Source: Octopus vulgaris
Taxonomy: Eukaryota
Direction of reading: 5' to 3'
Length of the DNA: 64,000 nucleotides
Assembly: GCA_951406725.2 (NCBI GenBank)
Contig: OX597830.1
Location: forward strand, 54,312,001-54,376,000
The notes beneath the pieces are model-generated. The model worked only from the letters and a program-made list of their open reading frames with translations. It ran no database searches and was not told where the DNA came from. Of the stretch, positions 4,091 to 52,236 are shown one piece after another. Both the position numbers and the translations under genes were made by a program. Position 1 is the stretch's first letter; every line of letters begins with the position of its first letter.

Positions 4091-4993
4091 TTAATTGAGT
4101 TCAGTTTTCTCATGCGACGGGTGATCTGTAGATTCTTTACATTTCCCTGGCCATAATTTCCGTACACTCTGTCTTATAGTGGCGTCGAAAAGCCATATAA
4201 ACGGCAAAAGCAGGAAGCATACAAAAAAAGTAATCCGATAATTGATGAACATCTGAACGCTAAAAATTGGGAAAATATTCAAAGCAAACAAGTTTCCTTG
4301 AAGACAAAAAATTAAAACGAAAATAAGAACAACGATTAAAGTTCTTAATGGTGATTTCATCATCTCACATTGTTTACCTCTAACGGCAATGTAGATCAGT
4401 ACGCCTATAAACACTAACAATGCTATCATCACAAATACTGAAAATATATTCATGATTGTTGTGAAACTATTCCCTAAGTAAATAAAACAACTAGATGGAT
4501 TTTCTTTTTTGAGCGTCAGAATCACTGCCAGATAAAGTACCCAGAGAAAGGCCCACAAAATCCCTGTCATTGCGTACTGGATAGTTAAAAACTTTTGACT
4601 TTCATATTTGCTTGGAAGAAAATATTTCACGATAAAATCACAGCAAATAGGGAATAAGAAATATTTTGACCCTTCTTCTAGAACATAATGAGTTATCACA
4701 AAAAATGCACAAGTTGAGGTTGGCAAATCTCGGAATCGATAGACATGAATATTCTGAAAATAAATGAACAAGGCAAACAATGCATAGTTCAACATATAGT
4801 TCAGCAATGATAGAGAGCGCGTTTTCCCGTGAGATTTACGATCTAGGAAAATGGCGATCATCAGAAATGCATTGGTCAGGATAACTAGAATGATCGAGAC
4901 ACACATAAATATATTCAACCGCCCGAAGGTATCATCCCCGAAGATTGAAGTGTCAGCGTCATTACTGGCTGTAGTCATTTGTAAATCTTCCAT
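4091..4993 (-). CDS. Orphan 7TM class A GPCR-like receptor, paralogue 1 (300 aa, single coding exon)
   Basis: Intact ORF with seven hydrophobic segments. TM1 Asn (ILTNAFL), TM3 Cys (TCAFF) plus ECL2 Cys (SSCFI), [15 protein letters not shown] in the register of the class A DRY...P..Y region, TM4 Trp, and TM7/helix 8 [19 protein letters not shown]. Four paralogues in the window. Confidence 0.9.
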
Positions 4994-4997
4994 AATT

Positions 4998-5025
4998 CTG
5001 AAATAGACAATAAAAGAAATAAAGT
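4998..5025 (-). promoter_or_regulatory. 3' splice acceptor of 5'-UTR intron, paralogue 1
   Basis: Minus strand reads tttcttttattgtctatttcag|AATT ATG; the motif is conserved in all five paralogues. Confidence 0.75.
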
Positions 5026-6404
5026 AACGAGTTAAATTGTATTTTCTTTATATAGTGATAATTTTAACTGAAATTTTTACAACTGTTATTTAGTTGAAAT
5101 TGTGCCAAAGATAGGATCTCTTGTTACAATAACGATGATGAGTGGGATCAATCACAACTATGCTGTACTGGCTTCTTCTCTATCCCAATAAAATCCCAAT
5201 AAACGATAGAAAACATCTCGGAAACCATACACTGCACAAATGTGTGTTGAAATAGTTTCCTTCATCTTCGGAAATGCATGAAAGTCAAAATATAACATTG
5301 AAGTCTCTCATAAAGCCAAATGTCACACGGCTTAGTAGAGGTAGAACGAAATTAGCCTTTAGAAAATAATGTTGTAGACGTAGTTGTGGATGATGAAGTA
5401 CAATTTATAGGGAGATTTGTTGTTTTAGAAAATCGATGAACGTAATGAAATTGACTGACTTCTTGTTTAAGGAGATTTTACAACTGAAATATGAAATAAA
5501 AAAGAGCCAGGCGAGTTAATTTTCTCGACAAGAATTATTTTTCTTTGCTTATGCACTCGCATATATAAAGTACCTTTTAGCATACGACGTCTGTATATAT
5601 ATATATATATATATATATATATATATATATATATGTAGAAGGTTGAAAAGGAACATACGAGTTGATATATATGAAAAAAAAAAACAAGTCAAGGTAGAAA
5701 ATGCTAAAATAGTTTTATAAAAACATTTCAGTACCGCCATTGAGACTTTTTCAACTGTAACTATGGAAAAGAATTAAATTTTGGAAAAATTGAAAGAAAA
5801 GTTTTTTAAAAGAATATTTGCATAGTGTTCAAATACAAGTGGCATTTTCCTTGTTTCTATCTGTTTCTCTCTCTCTCTCTCTCTCTCTCTCTCTCTCTCT
5901 CTCTCTCTCTCTCTCTCTCTCACAAGAGTAAACAAGACAGATAGAAACAGGCAGAAACAAGAACATAGGGATACCAAAAGTCCAAGCGAAGTTTAAAACC
6001 AAATAAAAAGAACAAACGTTATGAGTGGCAGGAGAAGGCTTTGCAGGGTAGATTCCCAAAGATAGTTGCAGCAAATTGTAGAAATGTTCAATTGGTACTT
6101 ATTTTATCGACCCCGAAAGGTTGAAAGGTAAAATCGACCTCGCCTTACTACTACTACTACTACTACTACTACTACTACTACTACTACTACTACTGCTGCT
6201 GCTGCTGCTGCTGCTGCTGCTGCTGTCAAAGTGAAAATCTTAGCAGCAGACATCTAGCTGTTATCTCGCTCCCCGTCGTGTAGCAGATTCCCTTGTCGGT
6301 CATAGATGACTTCTCGTTAGGACGTTGGTTTGGCGGCCCGCTCTCACATACACAAATATGTGTTTATATACATAAACGCACACTCATTCTTTTATTCTTT
6401 CTTT

Positions 6405-49989: not shown

Positions 49990-50780
49990 GTTAAAAAAAG
50001 AAACAGAGTTTAATTGTAGCAGCCCAAGATCAAGCGATAAAAGCAAATAATTTCAGAAAAAATATATATGAAGAGAATGTACCTGAAAAATGTATAGCCT
50101 GTGGAATTTGGGACGAGACAGTGGCACACATTGTAGCAGAATGTCCCAAGTTGACACAGGAAGAATATAAGAAATGGAGGCACGACCAGGTTGTAAAAGC
50201 TATACACTAGAAACTGTGCCAGAAATGGGGATTTGAAGCTGGAACCACATGGCACAATCATTGAGTAGAAAGAGTATTGGAGTCGGAGAGATGTAAGTTT
50301 TAGTGGGACTTCCCTGTTCAAACGGACAAGAAATTAGAAAATAATAGACGGACACAACAATAAGATAAGGAAAAGCAAAGATGCTTACTAATCGACCCAT
50401 CATGCCCGTTTGATTCCAGGATTGTAAAGAAAGAGAACAAAAAACAAAACAAAAAAAAAAAAAACAAAAAAATACAATCCCTTAAAATTTGAAATAGGAA
50501 GAATTTCGAGTATGAGAAGTGTAAAGGTTGTGCCTATAATAATTGGTGCGCTGGGAACAGTAAACAAAGATATAGACAAATGGCTGAAAGAGAGTGGAAT
50601 AGAATGCCCGGTAGAGCTCCTACAGAAAGTTTGTCTCTTAGGTAACTCGGGGATCATTAAAAGGGTTCTAAGCACTTGAAAGACTACTGAAAACTTGTGG
50701 ATACCTAAGGTTACAGGTAGTAGTCGCTACCCACATAAATCCTACCAGGAATAAAACTGTACCCGAGTCAAACCAAATAA
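49990..50780 (+). mobile_element. R4/Dong-like 3' fragment (CCHC and RLE)
   Basis: ETVAHIVAECPKL..EEYKKWRHDQV...VVPIIIGALGTV read across frameshifts. Confidence 0.7.
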
Positions 50781-51348
50781 TAATGATTTCAAATTTTGGC
50801 TCGAGGCCAGTAAGTTCGGGAGAGAGGTAAGTCGATTACATTGACCCCCCCCCCCCAGTGTACAACTGGTACTTATTCTTATCAACGCCGTAAGGGTGAA
50901 AGGCAGTCAACCTCGGTGGAACTTGAATTGAGAATGTAAACCTGGACGAAATGCCGCAAAGCATTTCGCGACGACGTACTAACGATACAGCCAGTTCACC
51001 GCTTTAAAATATTAATATTAATAATAATAATTACCATCATCCAAATCTTTAATATTATTATCATCATCATTATTTTGGCAATTGTAATTGTCACTTGCAT
51101 CTAGCTCTTAGTGATGTACATTTTTATTAGTATTATTACAGTAAAAAAAATGCATATGTCATATAGCCCTATATTACAGCTCTATGTGTAATTTATACTT
51201 CGATTAATGTACGATATAAGCTAATTTATAAGCTATACACACAAGAATAATGTTTAATAGTATTATATAAAGCATTGTATAAGCTGATATAATGCATGTA
51301 GATTTGTATGTAAGCAGATATAAAACATGTTTACATTACTTTATGTGA

Positions 51349-52236
51349 TTAGTTTAGTTTAGTTAACTCATTCGGTGAGAAGTCATCAGAACTTTGACAT
51401 TTTCTTGAACATAGTGTTCGAATACTTTGTTTTATAGTGGGATCAGAAAGCCACAAAAACGGTACCACTATAAATTTTATGAGAAATATTAAAAAGGCAC
51501 TGTAAAACAATTTAGCCATTAACCCTCCATACATTACAGCAAACAAAATGTTGTGAATAGCGTATAGTATCATCGTGACGAGAACAACAGCGATTATTGT
51601 TCTTAATGGTACAATTGTATCATCATTCCCTCTATTATTCACTGAAATGTTGATCAACATACCAAGATATACTAGTAATACTATAACATACAAAATTACT
51701 ATGGCAAAATGGAAATAGAGGGCACTTGCATCTAAGTCTATCTGACATGGATTGAGTTTGTGGGATGTGTATGCTAACATCATTACTAATACTTTTATCC
51801 AGATAAAAACCCACAAAACTACCGTTAGTATGATCTGGGGACACAGAAAACTTTGACTGTCGTGTTTGCTTGGATTAGTGTATTTCACAATAAAATCATA
51901 GCAAATAGGAATTAAGAAATACAGAGCACCGTCTTCAAAAACGGAACATAGTATAAAAATGGCATAGCAGCCAGACGCTTGTAAATCAGTGAATATTTTC
52001 ACATGTGCATAGCGGAAGTAAAATAGAAAGGCAAACAGTGTGTAATTAAACATATAGTTCAATAATAAGAAAGAGCGCGTTTTCTCATAGGCTTTTCGAT
52101 CTAGGAAAATGGCTATCGATAACAGTAGACTGAATACGGTTATTACAATGGCCGCAATACAAACACTTATAGTTATCCAGTTAATTTCAGGAGATGCAGT
52201 GAGAGTAGAATTAGTTTCATTTTTATAGCCTTCCAT
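51349..52236 (-). CDS. Orphan 7TM GPCR-like receptor, paralogue 5 (295 aa)
   Basis: Intact ORF, closest to paralogue 4. CYDFIVKYTNPSKH, PFLWLSDPTIKQSIRTL, C-terminal TKLN, and N-terminal NET/NST sequons. Confidence 0.9.
   Translation of the reverse strand: MEGYKNETNSTLTASPEINWITISVCIAAIVITVFSLLLSIAIFLDRKAYEKTRSFLLLNYMFNYTLFAFLFYFRYAHVKIFTDLQASGCYAIFILCSVFEDGALYFLIPICYDFIVKYTNPSKHDSQSFLCPQIILTVVLWVFIWIKVLVMMLAYTSHKLNPCQIDLDASALYFHFAIVILYVIVLLVYLGMLINISVNNRGNDDTIVPLRTIIAVVLVTMILYAIHNILFAVMYGGLMAKLFYSAFLIFLIKFIVVPFLWLSDPTIKQSIRTLCSRKCQSSDDFSPNELTKLN

Follow-up and report, generated by a model that had tools for sequence, protein, structure and literature searches.

A tandem array of divergent class A receptor exons in Octopus vulgaris, each behind a splice acceptor and probably spliced to distant non-coding leaders

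Expanded class A G protein-coupled receptor (GPCR) groups of lophotrochozoans (Nath et al. 2025, PMC11886862) and the AcCR receptors of Aplysia (PMC2700072) are tandem and lineage-restricted, with an intronless coding region, a short N-terminus and variable outer halves. In all these respects they resemble five receptors that we analyzed in a 64,000-nt stretch of Octopus vulgaris DNA (hereafter the window; contig OX597830.1, positions 54,312,001 to 54,376,000 of assembly GCA_951406725.2). Two other kinds of locus resemble the arrangement of the octopus exons. At the olfactory receptor (OR) loci OR51E2/OR51C1P, the GPCR open reading frame (ORF) lies in the last exon and a remote leader is also used by a neighbor (PMC7055050, PMC4982115). 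Such sharing is a rare side product, with exons of the 5′ untranslated region (UTR) shared at 7 of the 874 OR loci in human and 7 of the 1483 in mouse (PMC7055050; PMC4982115), whereas the octopus pattern seems to span most copies in two species, and the octopus receptors carry no OR motifs. In Drosophila mod(mdg4) and PGRP-LC, a common 5′ part is joined to one of many tandem last exons (PMC6237743, PMC6191721); those common exons code for a shared domain, whereas the octopus common part would be non-coding and each cassette a complete receptor. The reading we favor, at somewhat less than even confidence, is that whole-receptor exons are spliced to one or two distant non-coding leaders and that the receptors sense fast-changing outside molecules.

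An ORF scan of the window yielded five co-oriented, ATG-initiated ORFs of 286-307 aa on the minus strand, with pairwise identities of 38-66%. They lie where the initial annotation, made from the sequence before this analysis, had placed five co-oriented ORFs of about 300 aa. Before each ATG stands a pyrimidine tract ending in TTTCAG (5/5 copies, 4-33 nt away), and in every copy the 30 nt ahead of this acceptor are free of further AG dinucleotides. The coding exons and acceptors are as follows (clades A and B are those of the tree described below; the acceptors of copies 1, 2, 4, and 5 are predicted from sequence only).

4091..4993, minus strand: copy 1 coding exon, 300 aa, clade A; relative of Octopus sinensis LOC115220941 isoform X2
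4998..5003, minus strand: copy 1 acceptor TTTCAG, 4 nt before the ATG
11333..12250, minus strand: copy 2 coding exon, clade A; ORF 11390-12250, 286 aa; relative of LOC115220941 isoform X1 (304 aa)
12284..12289, minus strand: copy 2 acceptor, 33 nt before the ATG
24994..25896, minus strand: copy 3 coding exon, 300 aa, clade A; presumed-RNA runs X1, X2, and X5 have contigs over it
25923..25928, minus strand: copy 3 acceptor, 26 nt before the ATG; contigs of runs X1 and X2 leave the genome here, DNA-type run X17 is continuous
33899..34822, minus strand: copy 4 coding exon, 307 aa, clade B; related both to LOC115220942 isoform X1 and to LOC106869328 isoform X3 of O. bimaculoides
34850..34855, minus strand: copy 4 acceptor, 27 nt before the ATG
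51349..52236, minus strand: copy 5 coding exon, 295 aa, clade B; relative of LOC115220942 isoform X3
52264..52269, minus strand: copy 5 acceptor, 27 nt before the ATG

The acceptors are kept although synonymous divergence (dS) between copies is 0.32-1.01. The five are homologous and were not counted as independent evidence.

Contigs from 4 of 24 runs (X1, X2, X5, and X17) were aligned on 24910-27935, which covers 3,026 of the 64,000 bases; which runs are RNA is a guess (15 runs were guessed to be), and X1 and X2 come from one study. The X1 contig followed copy 3 as far as the acceptor's final G (25923), beyond which came 20 foreign letters. For X2, 510 letters of a 539-nt contig aligned to the same acceptor, with 29 letters beyond. 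Run X17, a large DNA-type run, was continuous across 24910-26895. Contigs of X1 and X2 left the intron of copy 3 uncovered, to which we attach no weight. The break at copy 3's predicted acceptor is the pattern expected of spliced RNA, and acceptor use was thus seen for the single copy examined (1/1). We consider it very probable that a 5′ intron precedes the receptor coding exon. The earlier description of the genes as single-exon is therefore not sustained: each ORF sits behind a 3′ splice acceptor, and presumed-RNA contigs break at that of copy 3.

The 20 foreign letters of the X1 contig had no match in the window at up to 3 mismatches, and shorter pieces matched at chance level only. Because the leader letters are absent from the window above copy 3, the first intron of this copy, given cis splicing and a complete assembly, likely exceeds 38 kb and extends across copies 4 and 5. 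Other loose contig ends matched copy 4 exactly (X2, X5) and copy 1 or 2 (X2); several copies are therefore present in one sample, and transcription of the array is likely. For a second loose end, the 30 visible letters of 58 were not in the window. Contigs of X1, X2, and X5 (two studies) on 25734-25900 also carried an extra clade A-like paralog whose N-terminus is 9 codons longer than that of copy 3. This paralog is absent from the window, with no joint seen in run X17 (76% read), and it lies outside the window or is a copy-number variant. Separately, an additional ATG, out of frame, lies 7 nt ahead of the start in both copy 4 and copy 5 (34822-34850 and 52236-52264) and could damp their translation.

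NCBI gene models from two other species bear on whether the copies use a common leader. Annotation groups models as isoforms of one gene where an exon is common. Isoforms X1-X3 of O. sinensis LOC115220942 are three receptors that are 47-60% identical, and isoforms X1-X2 of LOC115220941 are two different receptors. Likewise, isoforms X3-X4 of O. bimaculoides LOC106869328 are two receptors, and P0015 is isoform X2 of LOC128246974. Since the isoforms have non-overlapping single-exon ORFs, a common non-coding exon is implied. The gene ids follow clades A and B in the tree. A trans-spliced leader was considered and is not favored, as the isoform grouping is local to these loci.

Homology between the copies ends ~230-500 nt above the ATG, as if the duplicated unit were the acceptor plus the coding exon, though old flanks may simply have decayed. 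Logan contigs are assembled at k=31. The X2 contig of copy 3 has 30 leader letters, and the contig of the extra paralog ends at one offset in three runs, with ~29 leader letters. These ends fit, and hint at, an assembly-graph branch where one leader splits into several exons. The difference between 30 and 29 suggests either that there are two leaders or that unspliced RNA takes part in the branch. Taken together, we regard a leader common to the copies as probable.

Alternatively, the copies could be ordinary tandem genes with private promoters and 5′ exons, and the isoform names could come from gene models merged by annotation or from infrequent read-through splicing; a few vertebrate OR loci offer a parallel. 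Non-coding 5′ exons are normal for ORs, with sharing at only the 7 human and 7 mouse loci (PMC7055050), and the leader of copy 3 could be missing from the assembly. The following block would also suit local promoters.

26184..26259, minus strand: non-coding block above copy 3, 77% homologous to 5337-5410, which has the same position above copy 1

A 152-nt X5 contig (26252-26403) adjoins this block, which may be an intron element or a local promoter remnant; the counterpart above copy 1 (5337-5410) contains a TATA-like word. Separate genes would nevertheless have to explain why merging recurs in two species and four gene ids, and why the 38 kb above copy 3, in a window without N, does not contain the observed leader letters. 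We judge this explanation improbable.

The five ORFs are almost certainly real receptors. An AlphaFold2 model built from a 17-sequence alignment has seven helices, a hairpin-like short second extracellular loop (ECL2), a short third intracellular loop (ICL3), and helix 8 (pLDDT 78.6), in agreement with the seven-transmembrane (7TM) topology proposed at first. The initial annotation had suggested a structure search, and each of the best 50 matches listed was a class A GPCR, with nearly tied scores (Z 21.6-23.8) at 9-15% identity; D3R matched with Z 23.8 and a root-mean-square deviation of 2.9 Å over 258 residues. No OR or TAS2R was among the best 50 fold matches, which as near ties do not amount to an exclusion of either. 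The predicted fold is that of a class A GPCR with no special neighbor.

Pfam 7tm_1 matched none of 16 family proteins at E values up to 10, and the vertebrate OR, V1R, and TAS2R Pfam families were absent among the matches of these 16 proteins. The nematode Srb profile matched copy 2 only, and weakly (E=1). In the ESM Atlas, copy 4 and one distant member adjoin rotifer and nematode class A clusters (0.94-0.97), which we take as a lead only; among these neighbors are Srsx and Srx clusters (0.94-0.96) as well as 7tm_1 clusters from rotifers. Two members from O. bimaculoides bear the UniRef name 'GPCR family 1 profile domain-containing'. A sequence search of the PDB gave no match with alignment A2 and three weak class A matches (E 0.09-0.22) with alignment A3. 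A viral origin was rejected: the matches in a viral library were generic viral GPCRs, which at 8-17% identity did not surpass the cellular ones.

The window proteins are 96.7-99.7% identical to named O. sinensis proteins. Named members come from O. sinensis, O. bimaculoides, and Argonauta hians, all octopods, and no named relative was found outside this group; the remaining members are unnamed assembly proteins, including a branch at ~25-27% identity (P0020, P0024-P0030). A HMMER scan of 1.84 billion representatives recovered 7 proteins (7 clusters at 50%), all with E values of 6e-30 or better, and nothing between 6e-30 and 0.001. The family searches found no sequence link to AcCR or to the expansions of Nath et al. 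Thus, this is an orphan class A GPCR family, of octopus origin by its identity to O. sinensis, which agrees with the earlier view of an orphan family that matches no named one.

A 20-row tree, from which the fragments or near-duplicates P0019, P0021, and P0023 as well as P0024-P0030 were left out, united copies 1, 2, and 3 with P0015 (clade A, support 98/98) and copies 4 and 5 with P0007-P0010 (clade B, support 100/99). The subgroups 1+2 and 4+5 described earlier are thus recovered, with copy 3 joining the former. In O. bimaculoides, copy 4 is matched by a 1:1 ortholog at 82% and the X2-type copy by one at 86%, and orthologs between Octopus species share 245/301 and 258/299 residues. Turnover appears moderate because orthologs are kept between Octopus species. 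The birth-and-death mode proposed for the family is consequently weakly supported: one truncated allele and copies missing from the window speak for it, and the 1:1 O. bimaculoides orthologs speak against it. Both O. sinensis and O. bimaculoides possess the clade B receptor P0009/P0008, whose counterpart is missing from the window and likely lies upstream of 64000. Four near-identical A. hians proteins (P0017, P0021-P0023) are named after O. sinensis LOC115220990, so a further, more distant family member in Octopus is implied. Two A. hians proteins have 8 of their 10 differences on the outer half.

The motifs of the cytoplasmic face are held tightly. AIFLDR, KTR, and LLNYMxNY are invariant in all five copies, and the TM3 motif reads DFIVKYxxPSK in all five; of the inner motifs called nearly invariant in the initial annotation, PFxxxxDxTI did not hold throughout, as copy 2 reads SF. 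C3.25, the ECL2 cysteine, and W4.50 are kept in 20/20 aligned rows, and D/E occupies 3.49 in 20/20; the TM3-ECL2 disulfide is a predicted bond, read from cysteine conservation. The DRY position reads D-F-I-V-K, with Arg at 3.50 in 0 of 29 proteins that have the motif (the 30th is a fragment) and Lys at 3.53 in 17/20 rows; the 3.50 register was set from the spacing to C3.25 together with a gapless, though weak, match to 5-HT1D (E 0.22). D2.50 is replaced by Tyr, there is no Pro in mid TM5 or mid TM6, CWxP has no match, and NPxxY reads xPFxW. A Y5.58-like Tyr is present in 16/20 rows, and helix 8 is conserved. ECL2 is ~15 residues long. Most members, down to ~25% identity, carry an acidic Thr-rich C-terminal tail (HELT-like).

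Several of these features recall TAS2Rs, which are also ~300 aa, have one coding exon, lie in clusters, and have lost DRY, CWxP, and NPxxY. TAS2Rs carry FYxxK in place of DRY (10.1101/2023.11.21.568072), an aromatic residue at 3.50 and Lys at 3.53 that parallel DFIVK, while another preprint aligns the Lys of FYxxK to 3.50 (10.1101/2020.10.23.348706). Unlike the octopus family, which keeps both, TAS2Rs are without W4.50 and the TM3-ECL2 bridge, and there is no detectable homology; the likeness would be convergent. Because TAS2Rs signal without the same motifs (10.1101/2023.11.21.568072; 10.1101/2020.10.23.348706), the octopus receptors may signal as well and, by analogy, may couple to G proteins despite the loss of DRY.

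The same losses could instead mean that these are decoy, scavenger, or arrestin-only receptors without G-protein coupling. Atypical chemokine receptors (ACKRs), the known counterpart, are typically without DRY and do not use G proteins (PMC7949164), and the absent R3.50, the Tyr at 2.50, the missing prolines of TM5 and TM6, the change of NPxxY to xPFxW, and the acidic Thr-rich tail are all compatible with such a role. Yet TAS2Rs signal with equivalent losses, and in the octopus family the cytoplasmic face is under purifying selection (ratio of nonsynonymous to synonymous divergence, dN/dS, 0.41), with the Y5.58-like Tyr and helix 8 conserved. We consider decoy function unlikely.

Divergence is concentrated on the outer half of the receptors. 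Identity among the five copies was 0.61 for the inner half (134 columns) and 0.33 for the outer half (143 columns; Mann-Whitney p=4e-13), with 0.20 in ECL2, 0.11 in the third extracellular loop (ECL3), and 0.25-0.26 in outer TM5-7; helix limits were set by hand from the predicted model, and the early stop of copy 2 was read through as X. The contrast between a variable outer face and a conserved inner face, noted by the initial annotation, is therefore upheld. Pooled dN/dS, from a counting method with pairs that are not independent, was 0.41 (0.30-0.55) for the inner half, 0.76 (0.56-1.02) for the outer half, and 0.97 (0.61-1.47) for ECL2 plus outer TM5-7. Between copies 4 and 5, the last of these regions gave 1.90 (1.01-3.98) with local dS and 1.44 (0.94-2.17) with gene-wide dS. 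Comparison with O. sinensis gave the same direction: copy 1 and P0013 differ at 10/148 outer and 0/152 inner positions (p=0.0007), and four pairs pooled differ at 15/597 outer and 2/590 inner positions (p=0.002). The protein sequence of copy 3 is itself among the database proteins, and both variants seen in its exon are synonymous.

Gene conversion is also evident in the family. The O. bimaculoides isoforms X3 and X4 are identical at 76/76 positions from TM2 to ICL2, compared to 207/300 overall; the counterpart pair in O. sinensis matches at 67/76 over the same region. For copies 1 and 2, dS is 0.13 in TM1-4 and 0.62 in ECL2-TM7. The conservation of TM1-TM4 is thus partly due to gene conversion, besides selection.

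A chemosensory role of the family is plausible. Whether the ligands would be non-self or environmental molecules, rather than internal peptides or the cargo of a decoy, we put at about even. N-termini are acidic in 20/20 rows (3-7 D/E, 0-1 K/R), and at least 2 Tyr stand beside D/E in 12/20 rows and in 2/5 window copies; both counts are without a background control. Chemokine and atypical chemokine receptors likewise have an acidic Tyr-rich N-terminus, a short ICL3, a clustered arrangement, and a 5′ UTR intron, and the atypical ones lack DRY. One could therefore read the array as the same cassette locus serving internal or conspecific peptides or proteins, such as immune chemoattractants or reproductive proteins, in the manner of chemokine, C5a, and formyl-peptide receptors. 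The N-terminal acidity and tyrosines, the invariant C3.25 and ECL2 cysteine, and the short ECL2 hairpin and ICL3 of the predicted model agree with it, and tyrosine sulfation of the N-terminus is established in chemokine binding (PMC7949164). Expanded cephalopod class A groups are, moreover, expressed mainly in testes and gills (PMC6408891). However, there is no homology to chemokine receptors, and their cysteine pair between N-terminus and ECL3 was not seen in the family alignment. The Tyr cluster is missing in 3/5 window copies, and in the fold search chemokine receptors scored no better than amine or lipid receptors among the matches listed. We know of no chemokine-like ligand in molluscs. 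Internal peptides thus seem a somewhat unlikely answer.

The model we consider best is the one favored at the outset, in which whole-receptor exons are joined to distant leaders. A distant promoter would yield a long pre-mRNA, in which a leader upstream of 64000 would be joined to one acceptor, so that the copies would serve as alternative last exons and each mRNA would encode one complete receptor. New receptors would arise by duplication of the acceptor and coding exon and would inherit the promoter. Selection and gene conversion would hold the cytoplasmic face, with TM2-ICL2 kept alike by conversion, while the pocket diverges; the cassettes would thus differ in the ligand they detect but report it to one common effector. 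In G-protein coupling, D-F-I-V-K would take the part that FYxxK has in TAS2Rs, and the acidic, often Tyr-rich N-terminus and TM3-ECL2 Cys pair would favor peptide or protein cues. The strictest form of this model, in which one promoter and non-coding leader select among complete, pocket-diversified chemosensory receptors by mutually exclusive long-range splicing, the repertoire grows by duplication of a 1.2-kb cassette, and signaling uses a TAS2R-like DFxxK switch that evolved independently, is in our view unlikely.

Several observations weigh against the cassette model. The copy 3 junction comes from two samples of one study whose RNA status is guessed, the gene id of copy 3 is hidden, and the isoform names are automatic annotation. 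The contigs showed no donor shared by two or more acceptors, the window did not yield the leader, and the counts of 30 and 29 letters mean that copy 3 and the extra paralog, both clade A-like, may use different leaders. As to sensing, the outer dN/dS intervals include 1 and leave room for relaxed constraint, and outer-half variability is general in receptor paralogs. One ortholog pair has no outer bias (23/146 versus 18/153), and three variant pairs of the distant branch show no clear one (p=1.0, 0.07, and 0.84). The family is small (7 clusters at 50%), with orthologs kept between Octopus species. Finally, it differs from mollusc candidate chemoreceptors in its DFI and xPFxW motifs, its ECL2 of ~15 residues, and its two cysteines. 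The arginine of DRY/ERC is retained in those receptors: Aplysia AcCR candidates keep R3.50 (PMC2700072), and the expansions of Nath et al. keep DRY and NPxxY and have an ECL2 of 25-30 residues without the TM3-ECL2 bridge (PMC11886862).

Cephalopods have few recognized chemosensory GPCRs, and this family supplies 6-8 concrete receptor candidates. Profile-based surveys likely miss it because Pfam 7tm_1 is not matched, and longest-isoform pipelines would keep one receptor where several are filed as isoforms. If the leader is shared, a GPCR repertoire would be built and chosen by splicing whole-receptor cassettes, for which vertebrate OR loci offer only a rare exception. The family is also a natural test of class A signaling without R3.50. 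For O. sinensis, 23 expanded class A genes have been counted (PMC11886862). The set of Ritschard et al. was built from Pfam signatures (PMC6408891), which the proteins of this family lack; Nath et al. also used topology and HHpred (PMC11886862). The data sets of either study may include the family unnamed. We found no paper naming the gene or protein ids, nor were they in one supplement file of PMC11886862, and no description of the family or of a cephalopod shared-leader GPCR array, although one may exist in subscription papers or other data sets. Leader sharing has precedents, as do tandem divergent GPCRs; the combination of locus-wide sharing, DFxxK, and peptide-receptor features would be new.

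Within the array, copy 2 has a premature TAA at 11390-11392 that drops its last 18 codons, including the conserved acidic Thr-rich tail. The homologous tail continues past this codon to a stop at 11333-11335, and the O. sinensis relative (P0014) is full length, at 304 aa. No sixth copy or remnant was found in the window by tblastn with 23 family proteins (E 0.05). As the initial annotation had noted, the ORFs lie amid repeat DNA: the spacers consist of microsatellites, dispersed repeats, and a decayed reverse-transcriptase fragment. The ORFs at 17342-18004 (minus strand), 39843-40250 (minus strand), and 43458-44081 (plus strand) resemble decayed LINE pieces; RVT_1 matched the first alone, and weakly (E 0.098). 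Rfam and tRNA scans gave no match. A dispersed SINE-like repeat of ~200 nt occurs in both orientations in at least 10 copies, including these.

30368-30582: SINE-like repeat copy
31602-31830: SINE-like repeat copy
33156-33378: SINE-like repeat copy
47855-48126: SINE-like repeat copy
48744-49226: SINE-like repeat copy
60677-60925: SINE-like repeat copy
63075-63778: SINE-like repeat copy

At 63330-63748 this repeat includes a 183-nt tandem array. The interval 7450-8624, which separates copies 1 and 2, contains nested local duplications of 100-190 nt blocks, and 26829-27935 is a high-copy repeat whose summed contig depth in run X17 is in the thousands, compared to ~45 for unique DNA.

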